A stretch of 42,185 nucleotides of DNA from Methanobacteriota archaeon (GCA_027064425.1 JAMOPO010000029.1:1-42185), one strand, 5' to 3'. Positions 288 to 37,451 are shown, numbered from the stretch's first letter. Numbers and translations are program-made. Notes: a model not told the origin generated them from the letters alone.

Positions 288-303
288 TATATTAAACTTT
301 CGG
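288..303 (-). promoter_or_regulatory. rRNA promoter, proximal (BRE + TATA)
   Basis: Minus strand CCGAAAGTTTAATATA: purine-rich BRE followed by a TATA box, ~170 nt upstream of mature 16S, in an otherwise very GC-rich leader. Confidence 0.75.
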
Positions 304-344
304 GTCGTCTGGGCCGTGCGTGCCGGTTCTTCCTCGCTGGAAAC

Positions 345-355
345 CCTATTTAAGC
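345..355 (-). promoter_or_regulatory. Probable second (distal) rRNA TATA box
   Basis: Minus strand GCTTAAATAGG; tandem promoters are common for archaeal rRNA genes. Confidence 0.55.
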
Positions 356-598
356 GTGGGCCGACGGCCGCGGGGAGCGCCATGGTCTCGCTCGACGCGG
401 CGAGGGGTCCGGTTCGTGCGGGGCGAGCGTGCCGGGCGGGCTGCCGGGTCTCCACCGAGGTGGTCTTCGTGCGGAGGGAGCGAGGGGCTCGGGAGATCCG
501 GCGGGTCCTCGGGAGTGGGTTCGTGGACCTGGTGGTGGACCGGGTGGTGAGGCGGGGCGCGCTGGAGGGGTTGGAGCGGGTGCGAGGGGCGTGGTCGG

Positions 599-653
599 TC
601 AAGGGTGGGTAGGTCATCGGGCGGGCCTCCCCTTCGCGGGCACTCGTCATCCC
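599..653 (-). ncRNA. Box C/D sRNA candidate
   Basis: Minus strand: C GGGATGA, degenerate D', C' CCGATGA, guide cctacccaccc, D TTGA. Confidence 0.6.
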
Positions 654-659
654 GGTCGT

Positions 660-681
660 CGTTACGCTCTTCGTAACGATT
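660..681 (-). repeat. Palindrome AAT-CGTTACG-N5-CGTAACG (copy 1)
   Basis: CGTTACG ctctt CGTAACG at 660-678; on the minus strand it is preceded by AAT, like the copies after the two tRNAs. Confidence 0.85.
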
Positions 682-703
682 GTCGCCGGCGCGGGGCGGC
701 CGG

Positions 704-766
704 TCAGCACCCTCGGGACCTATCATCGCGCGTGGCTCAAGATGGGGCTAATCCCCGCGTCATCCC
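704..766 (-). ncRNA. Box C/D sRNA, probable 16S guide
   Basis: C GGGATGA, D' TTGA, C' CGATGA, D CTGA, with a flanking GC terminal stem. Guides are complementary to TGGGGCTAATCCCC and ACCCTCGGGAC, both resembling the archaeal 16S 5' domain just beyond the window edge. Confidence 0.85.
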
Positions 767-812
767 GACCGCCCCGGTGGTGGTGCCGGCCTTCGGGGTT
801 TAATGGGTGCGG

Positions 813-872
813 TCGGGTGGGCGGTTTGCGATCATCCCGTCCGGTCGTCCCCCGTGGCCGTGTCCTCATCCC
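813..872 (-). ncRNA. Box C/D sRNA candidate
   Basis: C GGGATGA, D' ACGA, C' GGGATGA, D CCGA. D guide is complementary to GTGGGCGGTTTG, resembling 23S just 5' of the P-loop. Confidence 0.7.
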
Positions 873-995
873 GTCGGTCCCCTTCGAGCTCCTGGAGGGA
901 AGGGTGTTGTGAGCTCGCGGCGAGGTCGGGGGTGCAGCCGGCGGGGACGGTGGCGCCGTGGTGAGTCCGCCGCCGGGGGTGGGGCTTGAAGCGCT

Positions 996-1547
996 TCACG
1001 TCCGGTCCCGCTCGGGGGCGTGGATCTCGTAGAAGCCCTCGTAGGCGGAGTGGTAAGAGGGGACGCCGAGGCGCTGGAGGGCGCGCTCGAGTTCGCGCTC
1101 GAGCTCGCGGTAGGGTGCGGGGTCGTCGGTGGTCTCGAGCAGGTGGGCGCGGTGGGCGCGGTCGCAGGTGGCTCGGCAGGGGACGAAGCCCTCGGTGAGG
1201 ACGGTGGTGGTGGGTGGGTCGTGGTCGTAGCGGGTGTGGCCGTCGAGGAAGTAGTCGACGCAGCAGTCGGGGTAGTCGAGGAAGCGGCCGATGAGCTCGT
1301 CGTCGAGGGTGTACACGCCGAGGCGCTCGGCGACGTAGGGGTGCAGGGCGGGGCGGACGTGGAGGCCGGAGTTCTCCCAGAGCTCGAGCTCGGTCTCGAC
1401 GATGGCGGTGCAGAGCTGGAGGTCGTGTGGGGTGGTGCGCTGGAGGGCGAACCGGGCGATGGGGTGGGGCTCGGGGAGGTCGCCGGTGCCCTCGAGGTGG
1501 GACTGCAGGTCCTGTAGGAAGTTAAGCACTCGCTCGAGCGCGTGCAA
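996..1547 (-). CDS. DUF483-like conserved archaeal protein
   Basis: VRPAL...IGRFLDYPDCCV..F and GFVPC...C motifs. Start moved from 1610 to TTG 1547 because 1560-1619 is an sRNA. Confidence 0.7.
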   Translation of the reverse strand: MHALERVLNFLQDLQSHLEGTGDLPEPHPIARFALQRTTPHDLQLCTAIVETELELWENSGLHVRPALHPYVAERLGVYTLDDELIGRFLDYPDCCVDYFLDGHTRYDHDPPTTTVLTEGFVPCRATCDRAHRAHLLETTDDPAPYRELERELERALQRLGVPSYHSAYEGFYEIHAPERDRT

Positions 1548-1559
1548 GGTGGCCGCCCC

Positions 1560-1619
1560 GGGATGAGGAGCTAGTCCGGGGGTGAGGGTCTCCCGATGAT
1601 CGGCCTCCACGGCCCCTGA
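1560..1619 (+). ncRNA. Box C/D sRNA
   Basis: C GGGATGA 1560, D' GTGA 1582, C' CCGATGA 1593, D CTGA 1616; 15-16 nt guides. Confidence 0.75.
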
Positions 1620-1673
1620 CCGGTCGTAGCGGTTTTACGCTTATCTTCCCGGGCGCGTTGGGGGTGGCTCGGC

Positions 1674-2660
1674 TTGGTCGTGGTGCGCTCGGTTTCGAGG
1701 CTGCACGTGACGCTGATCGACCTGCACGGTGGGCTGGGCCGCGTGGACGGTAGCGTGGGGGTGACGTTGGAGGAGCCGTGGATGGAGTTCGAGGTGGAGC
1801 GGGCGGAGGATGGGGTGGAGGTGGTGGGGAAGGGTGAGGTGGCGGAGAAGGCGGAGCGGGCGGCGCGGGTGGTGCTGGAGGAGTTCGGGCTGGAGGGTGG
1901 CGCGCGGGTCGTGGTGCGTCGGTCGTACCCGGAGCACGTGGGGCTGGGCTCGGGGACGCAGGCGACGCTGTCGGCGGCGGTGGGCGTGCTGGAGGCGTTC
2001 GGGGTGGAGGAGTACGACGTGCGGGAGCTGGCGGACCTGCTGGGTCGCGGTGGGACGTCGGGGATCGGGGTGGCGGCGTTCGAGGGTGGTGGGTTCATCG
2101 TGGACGGTGGGCACCGGTTCGGTGAGGGTGGGAAGGAGGGGTTCAAGCCGTCGTCGGCGTCGGGCGAGGTGCCGCCGGCGCCGGTGGTGGCGCGGCTGGA
2201 CGTGCCGGAGGACTGGCGGTTTGTGCTGGCGATCCCGGAGGTTAGGCGGGGGGCGCACGGGGACGAGGAGGTGGACATCTTCCGGCGGTACTGCCCGGTG
2301 CCGGCGCGGGAGGTGGAGAGGGTGTGCCGGCTGGTGTTGATGGTGATGCTGCCGGCGGTGGCGGAGGGGGATGCGGAGGCGTTCGGTCGGGCTGTGGACG
2401 AGGTGCAGGAGCTGGGGTTCAAGCGGGTGGAGGTGGGGCTGCAGGACGAGGTGGTGCGGGAGCTGATGGAGGTGGCGCGTGGGGCGGGCGCGTACGGTGC
2501 CGGGCTGAGCTCGTTCGGGCCGACGGTGTACGCGGTGTGCGACTCGGCGTCGGCGGGCGATGTAGCGCGGGAGCTGGAGCGGTTCCTGAAGGAGCGTGGG
2601 GTGGGTGGCGAGGTGATCGTGTCGGGGCCCCGAAACGAGGGGTTCGAGGTGCGCGGGTGA
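1674..2660 (+). CDS. mptG: Beta-ribofuranosylaminobenzene 5'-phosphate synthase (GHMP family)
   Basis: SRLHVTLIDL, HVGLGSGTQ, GRGGTSGIG, GGFIVDGGH and GLSSFGPTVY motifs. Confidence 0.9.
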   Translation: MVVVRSVSRLHVTLIDLHGGLGRVDGSVGVTLEEPWMEFEVERAEDGVEVVGKGEVAEKAERAARVVLEEFGLEGGARVVVRRSYPEHVGLGSGTQATLSAAVGVLEAFGVEEYDVRELADLLGRGGTSGIGVAAFEGGGFIVDGGHRFGEGGKEGFKPSSASGEVPPAPVVARLDVPEDWRFVLAIPEVRRGAHGDEEVDIFRRYCPVPAREVERVCRLVLMVMLPAVAEGDAEAFGRAVDEVQELGFKRVEVGLQDEVVRELMEVARGAGAYGAGLSSFGPTVYAVCDSASAGDVARELERFLKERGVGGEVIVSGPRNEGFEVRG

Positions 2661-2789
2661 GAAAAGGGTTCAAATAGGGCGGCGGGGTGAGTACGCGCGC
2701 GTTCCGTGGGGAAGGGAAACATAAGCGTTTTTTGGCGGGTCGGACGGGTCTTATGGTGAGCGTCGGCCGATGATCGGGGGGCCGGCTCG

Positions 2790-4049
2790 TTGGGCGTGTA
2801 CGTGGCTGAGAACATCACGGGCGTGTACGCCTTCGATGAGGAGGGTAACCTGATCGACAGCGAGCCGTTCCCGGCGGATCCGGACGAGATCGTGGACCGG
2901 CTGATCCGGAAGGAGCGCGGTGAGGTGCTGGAGGAGGAAGAGAAGCTGCTCTCGAGGCTGGACGCGGACACGATCAACTTCGAGGGTACGAAGGCGGACC
3001 GTGAGCGGCTGGAGGACGTGGTGGACGGCGAGCTGATCGTGGAGTTCCCGAACGTGGCGGGTGAGATCCTGCGCGAGCGGGCGCGGGAGCTGGCCGTTGA
3101 GGTCGGTGTGATCGAGTCCGAGGAGGAGTACTCGGAGCTGGCCTACGAGGTCGGTATCAAGCTGTCGAAGCGGAAGGTGCGGGAGACGGTCGAGGAGCGG
3201 GACAAGATGATCATCCAGGCGATCAACACGATCGACGACATCGACCGGATCCTGAACATCCTGACGGATCGGGTGCGGGAGTGGTACGGGATCCACTTCC
3301 CAGAGATCAACAAGATCGTGAAGAAGCACGACGACTTCGTGACGCTGGTGGCGGAGCTGGGTCATCGAGACAACTTCACGAAGGAGAAGATCAAGGAGGT
3401 GCTGCCGGACTTCCCCGACCACCTGGCGGAGAAGCTGGAGGAGGCCGCGAAGGACTCGATGGGTGCGGAGATGGACGAGAAGGACCTGCAGGCCGTGCAG
3501 CGGGTGGCGGAGATCGCGCGGGAGCTGTACGAGATCCGGCGGAAGACGGCGGACTACATCGACGAGTCGATGGACGACGTGGCCCCGAACATCAAGGCGC
3601 TGGTGGGCCCGCTGATCGGCGCGCGGCTGATCGCGCTGGCCGGTGGTCTGAAGGAGATGGCGCGGCTGCCGGCGAGCACGATCCAGCTGCTGGGTGCGGA
3701 GAAGGCGCTGTTCCGGCACCTGACGAAGGGTACGAAGCCGCCGAAGCACGGTGTGATCTTCCAGCACCCGCTGATCCACCGGAGCCCGTGGTGGCAGCGC
3801 GGTAAGATCGCGCGGGCGCTGGCGGGTAAGCTGGCGATCGCGGCGCGGATCGACGCGTACTCGGGTGAGTACCGGGGCGACGAGCTGAAGCGGCAGCTGG
3901 AGCAGCGGGTGAAGGAGATCAAGGAGAAGTACCCGAAGCCACCGAAGCGGCGCGGGCGCGGTCGGCCGCCGCGCGGTCGGCGCGGTCGGCGTCGCCGGTC
4001 GCCGAGGCGCTCGCGCCGGGACCGGAGGCGCCGCTCGCGCAGGCGCTGA
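2790..4049 (+). CDS. nop5: Box C/D RNP protein Nop5 (Nop56/58)
   Basis: REWYGIHFPE, APNI..LVG..IGARLI, PASTIQLLGAEKALF, PPKHGVIFQ, RGKIARALAGK. Confidence 0.97.
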   Translation: MGVYVAENITGVYAFDEEGNLIDSEPFPADPDEIVDRLIRKERGEVLEEEEKLLSRLDADTINFEGTKADRERLEDVVDGELIVEFPNVAGEILRERARELAVEVGVIESEEEYSELAYEVGIKLSKRKVRETVEERDKMIIQAINTIDDIDRILNILTDRVREWYGIHFPEINKIVKKHDDFVTLVAELGHRDNFTKEKIKEVLPDFPDHLAEKLEEAAKDSMGAEMDEKDLQAVQRVAEIARELYEIRRKTADYIDESMDDVAPNIKALVGPLIGARLIALAGGLKEMARLPASTIQLLGAEKALFRHLTKGTKPPKHGVIFQHPLIHRSPWWQRGKIARALAGKLAIAARIDAYSGEYRGDELKRQLEQRVKEIKEKYPKPPKRRGRGRPPRGRRGRRRRSPRRSRRDRRRRSRRR

Positions 4050-4867: not shown

Positions 4868-4902
4868 GCCCGCAACCATTTTTTATTCAAGGTGACCGGG
4901 CC

Positions 4903-4954
4903 CCGATGACTGCATTCACCCCTCCTGACCTGGTGATGAGGCGGTCCCCCTAGA
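4903..4954 (+). ncRNA. Box C/D sRNA
   Basis: C CCGATGA, D' CTGA, C' GTGATGA, degenerate D (TAGA). Second guide is complementary to GGGGGACCGCC (16S-like). Confidence 0.7.
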
Positions 4955-4962
4955 AGGAGGGC

Positions 4963-5014
4963 CCGATGAGGAGGCAGCCCCAGCCTGAGGTATGACGACG
5001 GAGAGCCGAGCCGA
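4963..5014 (+). ncRNA. Box C/D sRNA
   Basis: C CCGATGA, D' CTGA, C' ATGACGA, D CCGA. Guides are complementary to TGGGGCTGCC and TCGGCTCT, resembling the 23S peptidyl-transferase/A-loop region. Confidence 0.78.
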
Positions 5015-5032
5015 GGGATCCGGGGTGCGAGC

Positions 5033-6004
5033 GTGACCCCTCTCGAGCTCCTCGCCGTGGCCATCCCCTCCCTTTACATGGGCTGGACGATCGGGGCGGA
5101 CGACGCGGGCGCCGCGATGGGCTCGGCCGTCGGCGCCGGCGTGTTCACCACCCGGCAGGCCGTCATCCTGATCGCCGTGTTCACGACCCTCGGCGCCGTG
5201 CTGGAGGGGCACAAGGTCGTCAAGACCCTCGGAAAGGGCGTGGTCCACGGCCACTTCGACCCCGTCCTCGCGGGCGCCACGGTCCTCGTCGCGGCCGTGT
5301 GGTGCCACCTCGCCGTCATGATGGGCGTTCCCATCTCAACGACCCAGGCCACCGTGGGCGCCATCGCCGGGGCCGGATTCGCCCTGGGACTGCCCGTAGA
5401 CTGGAGCAAGTTCTCCGAGATCGCCGTGAGCTGGCTGGTGGCGCCGACCCTTGCCGCCGTGCCGGCCTACGTCATCTCCCGGCGGCTCCGGGGGCTGCTG
5501 CGCGCGAAGAGGCGGTCGCTGGGCGAGCTGGAGCGCATGATGAGGCTGTTTCTCACGGTCTCCGGCTGCTACGTGGCTTACTCCATCGGTGCCAACAACG
5601 CGGCCAACGCGGTGGCCCCGCTCGTGATGTCGGGCGTGCTCGACACGAGGAAGGCGGCCGTGATCGGCGGCATCATGATCTCGCTGGGCGCCCTGACGGC
5701 CGGCTCGCGCGTCATCGAGACCGTGGGGCGAAAGATCACCAAGCTGGACCCCGTAACCGCCTTCTCCGCCCAGTTCTCCGCCGCGGCGGTGACGCACGGC
5801 GCCTCGGAGCTCGGGCTGCCGATCTCGATCAACGAGACGACCGCGGGCGCGGTCATCGGGGTGGGCGTGTCCCAGGGCGAGCTGAACCTGTACACGGTTA
5901 GGAAGATCCTCGTGACCTGGGCTGTGAGCCCGCTCGGCGCCTTCGTGATGGCCTTCACGCTCGCCCACCTCTACCTCCTCGTCAAAGGGGCGGTTCAGGC
6001 TTGA
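5033..6004 (+). CDS. Inorganic phosphate transporter, PiT family
   Basis: Duplicated signature GADDAG/GANNAAN, PISTTQ/PISINE, multiple TM helices. Confidence 0.93.
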   Translation: MTPLELLAVAIPSLYMGWTIGADDAGAAMGSAVGAGVFTTRQAVILIAVFTTLGAVLEGHKVVKTLGKGVVHGHFDPVLAGATVLVAAVWCHLAVMMGVPISTTQATVGAIAGAGFALGLPVDWSKFSEIAVSWLVAPTLAAVPAYVISRRLRGLLRAKRRSLGELERMMRLFLTVSGCYVAYSIGANNAANAVAPLVMSGVLDTRKAAVIGGIMISLGALTAGSRVIETVGRKITKLDPVTAFSAQFSAAAVTHGASELGLPISINETTAGAVIGVGVSQGELNLYTVRKILVTWAVSPLGAFVMAFTLAHLYLLVKGAVQA

Positions 6005-6612
6005 TGCTCCGCCCGAGCACCCGCCCCGCGGAGCGGGCCCTGACCGTGCTGCTCGAGGAGCTGGACGCGATGATCAAGGCGTGCTCCCTGGTCTCCGACG
6101 CGCTGGAGGGTGAGGCCCGCGAGGACCTGGAGGAGCGGCAGGAGTCGCTCAGCGAGGAGGTCACGGAGCTCCGCGATCGCGTGGAGGAGGCCATGGAGAG
6201 CGGGCCCATGGTCCCGGTCGTGCGCGAGGACCTGAACTACATCGCCGAGAACGTCCGCCGGGCGGCCGAGGCGCTGCTCAGCGTGGTCTCGCTCCTCGTG
6301 GGCAGTTACGAGGAGCTCGACGAGGAGTGCCGGGAGCGGATCGACGAGATCGCCAAGATGGTCGCGGAGCTGGCCTCCGGGATCCGGGAGTCCGTGGAGC
6401 TGCTGGAGGAGGACGTCGAGGAGGCCGCGAAGCGCGCCGAGGAGGTTCGTGAGGAGGAGGAGAAAATCCGAACGGAGCTCCGGTCCATCCTATCCGAGGC
6501 GGGCGTGGGGAGCGACCTGGCCCCGCTGGTGCTGGAGATCGAGCGGGCGCTAACCGACATGGACCGAGCCCTGGACGGGGTGAGCCGGATCAAGTCCCGG
6601 TTCCTCGGGTGA
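6001..6612 (+). CDS. PhoU/DUF47-like phosphate transport regulator
   Basis: Acidic all-helical protein with two internal repeats, coupled to the PiT gene. Confidence 0.7.
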   Translation: MMLRPSTRPAERALTVLLEELDAMIKACSLVSDALEGEAREDLEERQESLSEEVTELRDRVEEAMESGPMVPVVREDLNYIAENVRRAAEALLSVVSLLVGSYEELDEECRERIDEIAKMVAELASGIRESVELLEEDVEEAAKRAEEVREEEEKIRTELRSILSEAGVGSDLAPLVLEIERALTDMDRALDGVSRIKSRFLG

Positions 6613-7565
6613 GCGGCGTGAGGGTCCTTGGGAGGGAGTGGCGGCACCCGGTCGCCTGCGCCTCCGGCGCCCTCGCGGCCCACCTGCCCGGGCTGGAGAG
6701 CGCCGCGGTGAGCGGCGCGTCCGCCATATTTACGAAGACGATCACCGAGGAGCCGCGGGAGGGACACCCCGGCCCAACGTTCCTGTCCTTCGAGGAAGAG
6801 GGCTACGCGCTCAACGCGATGGGTCTCCCCAACCCCGGTCTGGAGGGGATGCTGCGCGAGCTCCGCGCCTTCAGGGAGCGGCACGACGTGCCGCTGTACG
6901 CCAGCATCGCGGCGGAGGACCCGGAGGGGTTCGAGCGGCTGGCGAGGGGCCTCCGCGGGGAGGTCGACGGGCTCGAGATTAACGTCTCCTGTCCGCACGC
7001 GGGCCGTGGGATGGGCGCCGAGCTGGGCTCGGACCCGGGGCTCGTCGGGGAGATCGTCGAGGCGGTGGTGGGCGCGTTCGACGGGCCGGTTTCTGTCAAG
7101 CTAACGCCCAACGTCGACCGGAGGACCCTGCTGGAGGTCGCCGCCGAGGCCGTGGACGCGGGCGCGGACGCGCTCACGGCGGTCAACACACTGGGACCCT
7201 GCCTGCGGATCGACCTCCGCACGGCGAGCCCAATGCTGGGAGCCGGCGTGGGAGGGCTCTCCGGGCCGGCCCTCAAGCCGATCGCCCTCCGGATCGTGGC
7301 CGACCTGGCCCTGGAGCTGGGTGACGAGGTGGAGATCATCGGCGTCGGCGGCGTGCGCTCGGGCGAGGACGTGATCGAGTTCCTGATGGCCGGGGCGCGG
7401 GCCGTTCAGGTCGCCACGGCCGCCCGGGACCGGGCCTTCTCCGAGATCGCCGAGGAGGCGGAGAGGGTCCTGCGCGAGCTCGGGTACGAGGACTTCGAGG
7501 AGGTGGTGGGCGCGGCGCTCCCGGAGTACGAGGAGCGGCTGAGGAGGCTGGGGTGGGTGGAGTGA
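6609..7565 (+). CDS. pyrD: Dihydroorotate dehydrogenase, catalytic subunit
   Basis: NAMGLPNPG, EINVSCPH, VKLTPN, GGLSGPALKP, IGVGGV. Confidence 0.96.
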   Translation: MSGVRVLGREWRHPVACASGALAAHLPGLESAAVSGASAIFTKTITEEPREGHPGPTFLSFEEEGYALNAMGLPNPGLEGMLRELRAFRERHDVPLYASIAAEDPEGFERLARGLRGEVDGLEINVSCPHAGRGMGAELGSDPGLVGEIVEAVVGAFDGPVSVKLTPNVDRRTLLEVAAEAVDAGADALTAVNTLGPCLRIDLRTASPMLGAGVGGLSGPALKPIALRIVADLALELGDEVEIIGVGGVRSGEDVIEFLMAGARAVQVATAARDRAFSEIAEEAERVLRELGYEDFEEVVGAALPEYEERLRRLGWVE

Positions 7566-21965: not shown

Positions 21966-23288
21966 GTGGCGGGGGACAACCAGGCCCGGACCCGCGCACC
22001 CAAGGCGGGCATACACGACCGCCGCGTCCTGGTTATTGAAGTTTTCCCCGGCCTCACCCCGCCCAGGAGCCTCCTAAGGGACCTCAACCGCGAGGAGCGA
22101 AAGCTCCTCCTCGCCGCCGCCGGCCACCCCGACCTCCACTTCTGGGCCCGAAACACCATCGCCTACCTCTTCGACCACCCCACCCCCCTCCTCCTCGCCG
22201 CCGAACGACACGAGCGCATCCTCCCCACCGCCGTCCGCACCGTCGTCGAGCACCTGACCAACGACCCCAAGCGAGCCGACAAGGCCGCCCGGCTGGTACG
22301 AAAGGGCCACACCCCCCGCGAGGCCACCACCCACGCCGCCGGCCCCGACACCGCCCGCACCACCGCCCGAATCCTCGGCCGCACCCTGGGCTACATCCAG
22401 TCGGACCCGCTGACCATCGCCCTCACCCTCCAGGTCCTGGGCGTGCTGCTCACAGCACCGCACCGACTGCGACCGCTGACCCACATCCTCGTCGTGATCC
22501 CCGAGCTCAAGCACCTGAACATCCACCCGGAGCGCCTCGCCCGCCGCGTCTACTCCACCCTCTACCGCGCCCTCCGCACCCTCGACATCCCCCGCCACCT
22601 GACCCTCCGCGTCTACCTGAAGCGCGAGGACGGCCGCCTCGAGGACCCGCGCGGCGAGCCCACGGAGACCTTCCTGGTCGAGGCCTACGAGGAGCTCTTC
22701 CACCACCGACCGCACGCCGGCGGCAAGCACTTCCCGCCCCACGACCGCACCGCGCACGTCACCGCCTGGGCCCACGCCCTCGCCCGCGCCCTCACCGACC
22801 GCGTCCGCCGAGACCTACACCGGCGCGGGCTACGCGCCGCCCAGCGCGCCAAGCAACGCGGAGAGGACCCCAACGACGCCTACCAGCGAGAGCGCAACAA
22901 GTGGCTCAAACGCTGGTTCCGCCGCGGCCGAGCCTGGCTCAAGCACCACCGACCCGCCCCAACCCTCTCCCGACTCTCCGCCCACTTCGTCCTCCGGGAG
23001 GCCGGCACCGAGCTCCTGCACACCCCCGGATTCCTGGCCCGCGTGACGCGCACCACCCTCCGAACCCTGCTTCGAGCGGGGAACCTGACCCGGATCGGCG
23101 TCCGGCAGACGGTCCGACGCGTCGCCCGGAAGCTGGTCGAGAGGTTCCAACCCACCCCGGATCAGGCCAAGCACATCCTGAAGCTCCTGCGCCGAGCACG
23201 CCGCCGAGTGCTCGGTGACAGGACGCTGCTGGAGGCCTTTGGGACCCCATCGCGGCTCGAGGCGCTGGCCCGCAGCCCGCCCGGCTGA
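21966..23288 (+). CDS. Orphan, very basic (R/H/T/L-rich) hypothetical protein
   Basis: 440-codon ORF filling the gap, with the same C-ending codon bias as neighbouring genes; no family recognised, start uncertain. Confidence 0.6.
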   Translation: MAGDNQARTRAPKAGIHDRRVLVIEVFPGLTPPRSLLRDLNREERKLLLAAAGHPDLHFWARNTIAYLFDHPTPLLLAAERHERILPTAVRTVVEHLTNDPKRADKAARLVRKGHTPREATTHAAGPDTARTTARILGRTLGYIQSDPLTIALTLQVLGVLLTAPHRLRPLTHILVVIPELKHLNIHPERLARRVYSTLYRALRTLDIPRHLTLRVYLKREDGRLEDPRGEPTETFLVEAYEELFHHRPHAGGKHFPPHDRTAHVTAWAHALARALTDRVRRDLHRRGLRAAQRAKQRGEDPNDAYQRERNKWLKRWFRRGRAWLKHHRPAPTLSRLSAHFVLREAGTELLHTPGFLARVTRTTLRTLLRAGNLTRIGVRQTVRRVARKLVERFQPTPDQAKHILKLLRRARRRVLGDRTLLEAFGTPSRLEALARSPPG

Positions 23289-23340
23289 GTTGAAACCACG
23301 GGCGCAAGCCGCGCGACCCGGGGTGGGACCGGGGCCGCAG

Positions 23341-23662
23341 ATCGTTAAGAAGTTCGAAACAATGTGACACACGCTTGTCGTGCCGTTAAGAACGCACCCA
23401 GGGCGCTCAGAAAAGTGTTTTTCCTGAAGCTAACGAGACCACAAAACACAACCCTAAGCGCTGCCTTCATCGCGCTAATACCCGGCTAACCAAATAGATA
23501 ACCAAATAACCTGGTATTTGGACCAATATCTAACTTGAACCGAGCTTAAGTGATGACAGGCTGAAGCCGGTTGTCAGCCTTGATTCATGCGTTCTTTAAC
23601 CCGGGCGCGTCCCCCGGCGGGGCTGTGATCGGTTGGTTCCGGTTCGCTCGACCGTTGTTTCG
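23341..23662. other. AT-rich symmetric intergenic region; candidate replication origin
   Basis: Longest AT-enriched noncoding stretch in the window, with nested inverted repeats, sitting at a C-rich to G-rich strand switch. Confidence 0.55.
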
Positions 23663-23734
23663 GGATCGCGCGGCGGCTGGGTGAAGCTTCTTATCCCGCG
23701 GTCCGGTGGGGGAGACGGCCGGGGCGGGTTCGCC

Positions 23735-24607
23735 GTGCGGGTGGCCGCGTTCGCGGCGGAGTTTTACTCGCGGCTGCCGGAGGGCGTGTTCCGTGAGTTC
23801 GTGCGGGAGCCGGAGCGGCGGGAGTGGGCGTTCACGGTGGAGCGGGGTGGCGACCTGGTCTTCGTGCGGAAGCGTCGGTGGGACGAGGTGGAGGGGTTCG
23901 TGGAGCTGTACCACTCGGTGGGTCGGTTCGAGGAGCCGACGAGGTGGGAGGGGTTGACGGGCTGGGATTTGGTGCTGGACGTGGACGCGGAGCTGCCGGA
24001 GGATGCGGAGGGGTTCTTGCGGGAGCTGGGGGAGCTGTTGAGGGGTGTGGTTCGGGTGTGTGAGGAGCTGCGTCGGGTGGTGGGTCTGCCGGCGCCGGAC
24101 GTGATCAACTTCTCGGGGTCGAAGGGGTTTCATGTGCGGTACTTCTTTGAGTCGATTAGGAACAGGTTGAGGTGGGGGGAGCACTTGGGGAGGGGGTTGG
24201 ACGTGGAGGAGCTGGTTAGGGGGTTGGGTCGTGGGTTGGTCTGGTTGGCGGAGGAGGGGTTCATTGGTGGTGGGGTGGGTGAGCTGTTGGATGAGTCGAT
24301 GTACGAGTTGAAGCGGTTGATTCGGTGTGTGGGTTCTTTGAACGCTAAGTCGTTGTTGCCGGCGGTGCCGGTGTGGTGTAAGTGGGAGGGTTCGTGGCGG
24401 GAGTTCAGGGAGAGGGTGTTGGATGGGAGTGGGTTGGAGGTGGGTTGTTGGGTGGTTCGGAGGGTGTTGACGTGGCCGGGTGGTGGGTTGGTGGAGGTGT
24501 TGGATCGGGTGCTGGGGTTGGAGGTGGATGTCGGTGTGCGGGGGTTGGAGGAGTTCGTGGGTGTGTGGGAGGAGGTTCAGGAGGCGTTGGGGGAGATGAA
24601 GGGGTGA
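23735..24607 (+). CDS. priS: DNA primase small subunit
   Basis: REWAF, Y.S...E.P, WDLVLDVDA, FSGSKGFHV, RLIR..GSLN.KS.L. Confidence 0.9.
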   Translation: MRVAAFAAEFYSRLPEGVFREFVREPERREWAFTVERGGDLVFVRKRRWDEVEGFVELYHSVGRFEEPTRWEGLTGWDLVLDVDAELPEDAEGFLRELGELLRGVVRVCEELRRVVGLPAPDVINFSGSKGFHVRYFFESIRNRLRWGEHLGRGLDVEELVRGLGRGLVWLAEEGFIGGGVGELLDESMYELKRLIRCVGSLNAKSLLPAVPVWCKWEGSWREFRERVLDGSGLEVGCWVVRRVLTWPGGGLVEVLDRVLGLEVDVGVRGLEEFVGVWEEVQEALGEMKG

Positions 24608-37395: not shown

Positions 37396-37417
37396 AATCG
37401 TTATGAAAATCATAACG
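37396..37417 (+). repeat. Palindrome AAT-CGTTATG-N5-CATAACG
   Basis: Perfect 7-bp arms beginning 8 nt after the tRNA-Leu CCA. Confidence 0.85.
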
Positions 37418-37451
37418 GTCGCGCCCCCGCCTCGCCCCGGCCCGCCGTCCC

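Follow-up and report, generated by a model that had tools for sequence, protein, structure and literature searches.

The AT-rich spacer between a Methanopyrus-specific gene and a divergent priS gene: a candidate control region, weighed against a replication origin

Background

Two published surveys (PMC3914693, PMC2643942) leave open by what means replication begins in Methanopyrales and Methanococcales, which have no Orc1/Cdc6; they report the initiator missing from Methanopyrales and suggest its non-orthologous replacement. A locus where AT-rich, non-coding DNA lies directly ahead of a primase gene raises the question of whether it serves the start of replication or the control of its neighbours. 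Such a locus is found in the stretch of DNA analysed here (the window), which is an entire contig of 42,185 bp, C29, from the assembly of a Methanobacteriota archaeon (GCA_027064425.1, JAMOPO010000029.1:1-42185). The source genome, hereafter G000, comprises 1.54 Mb in 57 contigs, at 68% GC and 99% completeness, and the named homologues of the window proteins are Methanopyrus proteins. The spacer under study, 23289-23734, separates two plus-strand genes:

21966..23288, plus strand: ORF440 (open reading frame call), directly upstream of the spacer, coding for a Methanopyrus-specific, basic, mostly helical protein of 440 residues
23735..24607, plus strand: priS, a highly divergent primase small subunit gene, with a likely GTG start at 23735 in a frame open from 23633

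In an initial annotation, positions 23341-23662 had been proposed as an origin of a kind different from those built on origin recognition boxes (ORB), with initiator sites converging on an unwinding element. The features tested here are ordinary ones: a gene ends in a palindrome of a known family, boxes resembling promoters are present, and RNA extends over the spacer. For this reason the best single reading, held tentatively and at a little under an even chance, is that 23289-23734 is an ORF440-priS control region, combining a gene 3'-end signal with the promoter, operator dyad and leader of priS.

The spacer was compared with its counterparts in two complete genomes, G001 (1.42 Mb, 58% GC) and G002 (1,694,969 bp, 61% GC), and in a metagenome contig, L106, the closest relative, whose ORF440 is 77% identical. 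The order ORF440-spacer-priS is retained in all three, which together with G000 make up the four loci referred to below; the orthologous spacer lies at 544,769-545,065 in G002 and at 812.6 kb in G001. Genome-wide searches of G001 covered the 79% of the genome outside 900-1200 kb. A search of 20 relatives with the spacer DNA gave a sole match, of 36 nt and at chance level, in the genome G003.

Results

A palindrome known from tRNA genes behind ORF440

The first conserved element of the spacer begins 52 nt past the ORF440 stop codon:

23341..23363, no strand assigned: Box 1, a worn member of the CGTTA-N9-TAACG palindrome family (genus-wide form rATYGTTAYGA-N5-WTAACrAT), which includes the first CGTTAAGAA and the outer arm CGAAACAA

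The motif CGTTA(N)9TAACG was listed as 'tRNA downstream' and M. kandleri-specific in a 2017 motif survey (PMC5217627), which places it at about half of the tRNA genes, approximately 10 bp downstream, and whose authors guessed at a role in 3' maturation. Hits to the family number 28 in G002, 32 in G000 and 23 in the searched part of G001, and at least 14 of the 35 tRNA genes of G000 have the palindrome directly behind them; manual reading of the flanks places some copies away from tRNA genes, behind other genes. The family, previously published for M. kandleri, is genus-wide and includes a lineage of 68% GC. Behind tRNA genes it is most likely a 3'-end or termination signal.

The core of Box 1, AAGTTCGAAACAAT, is identical in L106. 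Box 1 as a whole aligns with ATTGTTACGATTTCAATAACATT of G001 and G002, where the copies read TGTTA-N9-TAACA, match the strict family pattern and fit the extended consensus. The window copy (CGTTA, 9 nt, then AAACA) keeps the left arm and the spacing but fails the strict pattern; its right arm, as in L106, is GAAACAAT and not ATAACGAT, and this worn form is itself conserved. By manual reading, 17 of 23 positions are shared with the copy behind the tRNA-Leu gene at 37400-37421. Unlike the tRNA-downstream copies, Box 1 follows a protein gene and has no tRNA nearby. Because Box 1 belongs to this family, the CGTTAAGAA repeats are to be regarded as half-sites of the family and not as origin-specific sites. 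The left box of the proposed origin is therefore one of about 30 dispersed copies per genome, mostly located behind tRNA genes.

A central dyad conserved in the four loci

In the middle of the spacer, a sequence scan delimits a composite dyad:

23487..23534, no strand assigned: central composite dyad, made up of tandem TAACCAAATA at 23487 and 23499, a palindrome and TAGATA/TATCTA
23502-23521, no strand assigned: palindrome CCAAATA-N6-TATTTGG
23495-23500 and 23527-23532, no strand assigned: TAGATA and TATCTA, the outer tier of the dyad

Both tiers are kept in the four loci, in the form (T/C)AGATA ... CCAAATA - loop - TATTTGG ... TATC/T. The palindrome is single-copy in G000, in G002 and in the searched 79% of G001, and three of the 14 CCAAATA sites found on both strands of the whole G000 genome are located here. 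In L106, CTAGATA stands in both direct half-site copies and TATCTGG in the inner inverted one; relative to G000, two identical substitutions occur in parallel in both direct copies, and one of them also in the inverted copy.

The remaining repeats of the region are the following:

23655..23666, no strand assigned: Box 3, TTGTTTCGGGAT, right arm of the outer pair, identical in L106
23384..23396, plus strand: second CGTTAAGAACGCA, left arm of the inner pair and a lone CGTTA half-site, unconserved in L106
23588..23600, plus strand: TGCGTTCTTTAAC, right arm of the inner pair, unconserved in L106
23558..23580, plus strand: hairpin AGGCTGA-N9-TCAGCCT, then a T-rich stretch (sequence scan)

All seven repeat elements described in the initial annotation were found at the positions given there; their conservation across strains is uneven. 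The central tandem and palindrome are kept in the four loci, and the outer pair (CGAAACAA at 23355, TTGTTTCG at 23655) is an inverted pair also in L106, with no counterpart in G001 or G002. The other three, namely the inner pair, the direct repeat CGTTAAGAA at 23343 and 23384, and the hairpin, are unconserved even in L106. The inner pair has a perfect core (AAGAACGCA, 23388-23396, and TGCGTTCTT, 23588-23596) within arms of 12 and 13 nt, which differ by one extra T. L106 carries a different short hairpin near the place of 23558-23580, and the segment is missing from the G001 and G002 spacers. Box 3 appears to be conserved as DNA and not as protein, because its frame relative to priS differs, by manual reading, between G000 and L106.

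The nested symmetry, from which converging initiator sites had been inferred, was evaluated against 1000 dinucleotide-preserving shuffles of 23341-23662. The longest direct repeat (10 nt) was reached by 41 shuffles and the longest inverted repeat (9 nt) by 175. The 9 inverted pairs of 7-mers, for a shuffle mean of 3.6, were reached by 44 shuffles, and the 8 direct pairs, for a mean of 3.3, by 58. Since this excess is marginal, the symmetry is unconvincing by itself; what lends it weight is that parts of it are conserved and unique. As candidates for initiator sites there are left only two direct half-sites and two inverted ones. An AT-rich spacer under weak constraint, with repeats arising by chance, would account for the marginal tests and for the three unconserved repeats. 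Long-range GC-rich inverted repeats around the spacer were likewise rejected as a by-product of a C-rich left and a G-rich right flank. For the conserved boxes, chance is an unlikely explanation: conservation singles out the central dyad, Box 1 and Box 3 from the bases next to them, and substitutions run in parallel through the half-site copies. As an account of the whole region, chance is scarcely credible.

A MITE-like insertion bounded by the inner pair was ruled out, its arms being single-copy in G000 and absent from L106. No small open reading frame within the spacer is common to G000 and G002.

Promoter-like boxes and RNA across the spacer

The tRNA genes of G000 give a clear upstream consensus of a B recognition element (BRE) and a TATA box, and two plus-strand boxes of the spacer resemble it:

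23409..23424, plus strand: BRE/TATA-like box AGAAAAGTGTTTTTCC, a putative promoter element
23683..23694, plus strand: proximal BRE/TATA-like box GAAGCTTCTTAT, a putative promoter about 40 nt before the likely priS start

By manual reading, boxes similar to the first are present in L106, G001 and G002, offset from Box 1 by ~68-70 nt in G000 and L106 and by ~30 nt in G001 and G002. The proximal box is kept in L106 as GAAGTCTTCTTA. The dyad of G002 has a left half, AGATAAGTAAC, that itself resembles a TATA box, with RNA contigs starting 21-25 nt downstream.

The RNA data are contigs from four size-fractionated runs of one study on the G002 locus, positions of which are given on the sequence L008. 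In three of the four runs, contigs start at L008:6997 and continue into priS. An archaeal BRE/TATA promoter carrying an operator would have its box 20-30 nt ahead of a mapped transcript start, and a dyad overlapping the box; of these features, the locus offers TATA-like boxes, recognised by their likeness to tRNA promoters, and the L008:6997 contigs as the sole hint of a start site. Other contigs bridge 6745-6977 and 6853-7028, with a depth of 5-30x in the spacer; these bridging contigs indicate that the orthologous spacer is transcribed at about the depth of priS.

Transcription of the spacer also bears on the possibility that the dyad is a transcript hairpin, belonging to a structured leader (as an attenuator) or to a non-coding RNA (for instance a small RNA ending at 23558-23580). 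A two-tier hairpin can be drawn in the four loci, with a variable loop of 6-11 nt that suits such a structure, and the inner-stem changes from G000 to L106 preserve base pairs, an A-to-G change being matched by T-to-C and a C-to-T change yielding a U-G pair. The G001 inner stem has an uncompensated mismatch, however, and the first tandem copy changed in parallel though a single hairpin does not need it. The spacer depth compares poorly with that of a true small RNA located 1.5 kb upstream, which reaches 300-4000 in the same libraries. The stems are AU-rich and their folds weak, with z-scores between -0.1 and -2.5 and energies, at 37 C, of -10 to -22 kcal/mol. Such a hairpin would probably not persist in an organism growing near 100 C, which makes it more likely that the symmetry is recognised by a protein on double-stranded DNA. 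No Rfam family was matched at gathering scores over the window, and when all matches up to E 10 were considered over 23200-23800 the only one was weak (E 1.8). Taken together, these data make the RNA explanation quite improbable. A C/D-box sRNA at GTGATGA (23550-23556) was rejected by eye for its wrong box spacing.

The control region: proposed arrangement and points against it

In the arrangement proposed for the control region, Box 1, as a worn CGTTA-N9-TAACG palindrome, would close ORF440 and be followed by the BRE/TATA-like box at 23409-23424. The genome-unique dyad, with its two direct and two inverted half-sites, would then act as an operator over the priS promoter. In the lineage of G000 and L106, these would be followed by a further leader of ~200 nt and the second, proximal promoter-like box. 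A symmetric protein, possibly ORF440 itself, might bind there and govern how much primase is made. Should the spacer prove to be nothing more than a control region, half of what looked like an origin corresponds to a known dispersed palindrome and to unconserved chance repeats.

Several findings weigh against this arrangement. The half-sites are spaced by 6 nt in G000 and L106 and by 9-11 nt in G002 and G001, which is awkward for one rigid dimer, and the dyad stands ~70 nt from the priS start in G001 and G002 (in G002 its centre is ~70 nt ahead of the ATG) versus ~225-290 nt in G000 and L106. The contig starts at L008:6997 fall on a stretch of T, and in one of the RNA runs this position is crossed; as contigs cannot prove 5' ends, they are a weak hint of a promoter. 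In the genome G004, priS is preceded by another gene, with no such spacer.

Base composition also fits poorly with promoters alone. The spacer has 42-48% GC in 100-nt windows over ~250 nt, against ~68% for the genome, and this AT-rich tract far exceeds the 10-12-nt promoter boxes found elsewhere in G000. It holds the lowest-GC 200-nt window among the G000 contigs larger than 40 kb. Five G000 windows of lower GC correspond to four coding stretches and to the AT-rich flank of an array of clustered regularly interspaced short palindromic repeats (CRISPR), and outside CRISPR loci no other non-coding stretch of the assembly is as AT-rich as the spacer. Of the low-GC spots checked on small contigs, 10 out of 14 are mostly covered by a stop-free frame, and three on large contigs lie within long open frames. 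Between G000 and L106, AT-richness is retained and most of the sequence is not, a pattern typical of an unwinding element. The last point against the control region, a peak of corrected strand skew close to the spacer, is described in the following section.

Evidence for and against a replication origin

An alternative that is possible, if doubtful, is a chromosomal origin dependent neither on ORB nor on Orc1/Cdc6. A lineage-specific initiator, for which ORF440 is the candidate, would bind the dyad and perhaps the CGAAACAA/TTGTTTCG arms, the surrounding AT-rich DNA would melt, and MCM and primase would be recruited. The locus does combine non-coding, AT-rich DNA, of a richness conserved above sequence, with a dyad unique in each genome searched and an adjacent priS gene. 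In G002, the AT-richness is less distinctive, 32 regions being more AT-rich than the orthologous spacer.

The absence of a canonical ORB or G-string, noted in the initial annotation, was confirmed by a motif scan of the region. Six published regular expressions for ORB motifs (Ori-Finder 2; PMC4164010, Table 1) revealed no clusters anywhere in G000, in G002 or in the region, where the only hit to the common ORB core, TCCA-N-GAAA, is CTGAGTTGAAAC, with 3 mismatches. Orc1/Cdc6 was not found in the G000 genome: the best TIGR02928 hit scored 22.4 bits for a cut-off of 181.3, and the two best hits, checked against Pfam, are proteasome-type AAA ATPases. This agrees with the two surveys cited above. 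A fast-evolving Orc1/Cdc6-like arCOG has been mentioned for class I methanogens (PMC4390880). The origin of Methanopyrus SNP6 could not be placed, and no DoriC match was reported for either strain (PMC5504354); our literature search found no paper mapping a Methanopyrus origin. In comparison with the Orc1/Cdc6-ORB origins of Pyrococcus and Sulfolobus, the spacer is similarly unique, non-coding and placed beside a replication gene, with inverted elements on both sides and an AT-rich tract (42-48% GC, ~250 nt) of the kind expected of their unwinding element. It differs in having no ORB, mini-ORB or G-string, in its four short half-sites, in the missing orc1/cdc6 gene and in being a candidate only.

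Strand composition was evaluated at the genome scale. The local skew minimum seen in the initial annotation is real in the window, and arises mainly from the C-rich coding strand of ORF440 facing the G-rich priS. Raw cumulative GC skew in G002 has its minimum at 461,894 and its maximum at 1,036,543, the spacer, at 544.8 kb, falling within a 460-565 kb stretch of mostly positive skew. G001 behaves likewise, with a minimum at ~700 kb and the spacer at 812.6 kb in the searched 79% of the genome. The raw minima thus lie 83-112 kb to the left, and neither complete relative shows a raw turn at the locus; the skew of M. kandleri has been rated weak (GCSI 0.023; PMC2684130, Table 2).

Third-codon-position skew in G002 was considered after correction for gene orientation, using 1603 crude longest-ORF gene calls at a resolution of 25 kb. 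The corrected curves peak at 562,895 (GC3) and 552,333 (AT3), which puts them 7-18 kb right of the spacer; they belong to a plateau extending from ~550 to 600-650 kb. Plus- and minus-strand genes agree on both sides, with G over C on the plus strand at 450-550 kb and C over G at 600-700 kb, and the range of the corrected skew was reached by 4 of 1000 permutations. There is, in G002, a real switch of strand composition near the spacer. Its polarity is mixed, the GC3 maximum being terminus-like and the AT3 part origin-like. By the usual rule, the leading strand is G-rich and a GC-skew maximum marks the terminus. Across the spacer itself, the plus strand turns more G- and T-rich among genes read manually as co-oriented in G000, and more mildly so in G002. 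The gene-strand bias of G002 switches near 450 kb.

The arrangement of the large rRNA genes was also examined:

16S, minus strand: rRNA gene at 516,776-518,289 in G002, 784,718-786,230 in G001 and 1-121 in the window
23S, plus strand: rRNA gene at 585,271-588,370 in G002 and 850,137-853,234 in G001

In both G002 and G001, 16S lies 26 kb to the left of the locus and 23S 37-40 kb to the right, both pointing away from it, and the 16S of the window has the same orientation. Provided that rRNA transcription runs in the direction of replication, as in bacteria, this layout would favour an origin over a terminus. The orientation of tRNA genes carries no signal at the genome scale, 15 of 29 being co-oriented with an origin at 545 kb. 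The 16S and 23S genes are unlinked and divergent, ~65-67 kb apart with the ORF440-priS spacer between them; a 5S gene to the left of 16S lies on the plus strand, opposite to the pattern of the other two.

The origin reading has in this way gained some independent, if ambiguous, support, as the composition switch and the divergent rRNA genes would put a replichore boundary within tens of kb. Much of the original proposal stands as description (non-coding, AT-rich DNA without ORB boxes, in a genus without Orc1/Cdc6, with a unique conserved dyad). What counts against an origin is the terminus polarity of the GC3 maximum, on a broad plateau derived from crude gene calls, together with the distant raw-skew minimum, the gene-strand switch near 450 kb and the uninformative tRNA genes. 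The flanking protein genes are not divergent, those between 18.3 and 29 kb of the window being all on the plus strand by manual reading of the open frames. The marginal repeat excess with its 2+2 half-sites, and the transcription running through the orthologous spacer, point the same way. In addition, ORF440 and Box 1 were not found in G003-G005 (87-94% complete), with a Box 1 pattern that also misses the G000 copy; in G004 the contig stops 366 nt past mmp7, which makes the absence there uninformative.

Two further ideas about origin placement were discarded. G001 and G002 are collinear apart from two inversions, at 282-345 kb and 1,153-1,318 kb of G002; their centres, near 314 kb and 1,235 kb, are away from the spacer, and inversions symmetric about an origin at the locus were ruled out. 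Repeat-dense windows were considered as alternative origins, and the top non-CRISPR one common to G001 and G002 consists of two similar tRNA genes; the highest-scoring windows were assumed to be CRISPR arrays.

The question of the Methanopyrus origin is narrowed, though not answered, to one 300-bp fragment and one protein as candidates in the cultured M. kandleri. A clue at the genome scale lies at ~520-590 kb, where the corrected skew peaks and the 16S and 23S genes diverge.

Comparison with archaeal dif sites

The GC3 maximum close to the spacer could also indicate a terminus, and the dyad would then be a dif-like site for recombination or segregation where forks meet, acted upon by a hypothetical enzyme. 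Archaeal dif sites, such as the one recombined by XerA in P. abyssi, are described in PMC2958812 as unique intergenic sequences with 11-bp inverted arms and a 6-bp spacer near a skew inversion, within conserved AT-rich flanks that hold further inverted repeats. The dyad of G000 and L106 resembles them in form, having 7-bp perfect arms, a spacer of exactly 6 nt, a unique intergenic position near a skew inversion, and AT-rich flanks with inverted repeats. By manual reading, the P. abyssi arms (oligonucleotide in the Methods of PMC2958812) share TATCTA/TAGATA with the outer dyad, a weak likeness extending to ~5/11 positions. In G002 and G001, the dyad spacer is instead 9-11 nt long. Were this the terminus, 16S and 23S would both be transcribed towards the oncoming forks. 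No match to XerA (NF040815) was found in the G000 genome, and the tyrosine recombinase domain PF00589 was found in none of four Methanopyrus genomes (G000, G001, G002 and G004), the control search being positive in 14 genomes out of 14. Such a site is very improbable. Methanopyrus appears to be without the usual archaeal Xer/dif chromosome-resolution enzyme as well as without Orc1/Cdc6.

ORF440

ORF440 is named above both as a possible ligand of the operator and, if the origin reading is true, as the candidate initiator. Its family comprises seven clusters at 90% identity: the five named ones all carry the name Methanopyrus, and the remaining two are the protein of the window and an unnamed JGI protein. 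A search of 1.84 billion representatives gave 3 matches, including one distant metagenomic relative. No Pfam family was matched, and the sole NCBIfam match, to a Tn3 transposase, is weak (E 6.5e-4) and far under the cut-off. The AF2 model is helical, with a mean pLDDT of 62. No fold match was obtained with Foldseek (best E 0.19), and the VIA-align search remained in the noise (best Z 5.5), with scattered sigma-factor, AAA-lid and HhH rows, as did the comparison with the protein Atlas (best score 0.82). In particular, the Pfam, NCBIfam and fold searches gave no match to a Rep, AAA+ or HUH family, and no ATPase motif was recognised, which counts against the origin reading.

Origin modules of plasmids and viruses combine a rep gene with iterons. 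The locus resembles them, as a gene for a lineage-specific basic protein stands beside unique direct and inverted repeats in AT-rich DNA and is followed by a primase gene; it differs in being chromosomal and syntenic across the genus and in the lack of a match to Rep, AAA+ or HUH families. The spacer and ORF440 might be the missing origin-initiator pair of the Orc1/Cdc6-less Methanopyrales, not orthologous to Orc/ORB, in which ORF440 would bind the four-half-site dyad beside its own gene, open the AT-rich DNA and bring in MCM and the divergent primase. This more specific proposal is unlikely.

The coding strand of ORF440 is strongly C-rich (GC skew -0.32 at 22001-23000), with mostly NNC codons by eye, and the plus-strand genes to its right are strongly G-rich (skew +0.4 to +0.58). 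The G002 orthologue, ORF446, has an ordinary positive skew of 0.07-0.2. It is covered by RNA contigs, with an A-tailed 3' end 6 nt past its stop codon in three of the four runs. An RNA of ~88 nt (L008:6686-6774), with a depth of 64-70 in two runs, takes in the final codons of ORF446 and has an A-tailed end 6 nt past the stop; its location is inside an inverted repeat of GC-rich sequence (6750-6762 / 6803-6815) spanning the stop codon. The abundant small RNA mentioned above, L008:5354-5487 (G002 543,353-543,486), reaches a contig depth of 300-4000 and has T-tails, indicative of minus-strand 3' ends. It sits between ORF446 and a minus-strand gene for a 247-aa protein, which is not present in G000.

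priS and flanking genes

The priS product matches the NCBIfam PriS model with an E of 4.9e-6, far below the family cut-off, and a Pfam search with PF01896 (DNA_primase_S) gave nothing anywhere in the G000 genome; its translation shows the DxD and SGxxGxH motifs. Orthologues in G001 and G002 are 59% identical from residue 34 onward, identity among genomes of the genus being 54-59%, and the N-terminal extensions of G000 and L106 are unrelated to each other. It is the sole PriS-like gene of the G000 genome.

Upstream of ORF440 lie methanogenesis-marker genes, identified by Pfam as coding for a BcrAD-type ATPase, DUF2113, a radical SAM protein and MCR_C. Elsewhere in G000, CRISPR arrays occupy contig C47 at 4900-7400, with a repeat starting with GTTTCATTACCCG; the 576-nt AT-rich flank beside them, taken as a leader, ranks with the most AT-rich non-coding DNA in the assembly. 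In G002, the regions 1,105-1,153 kb and 1,318-1,372 kb, on either side of the second inversion, are without counterpart in the parts of G001 searched.

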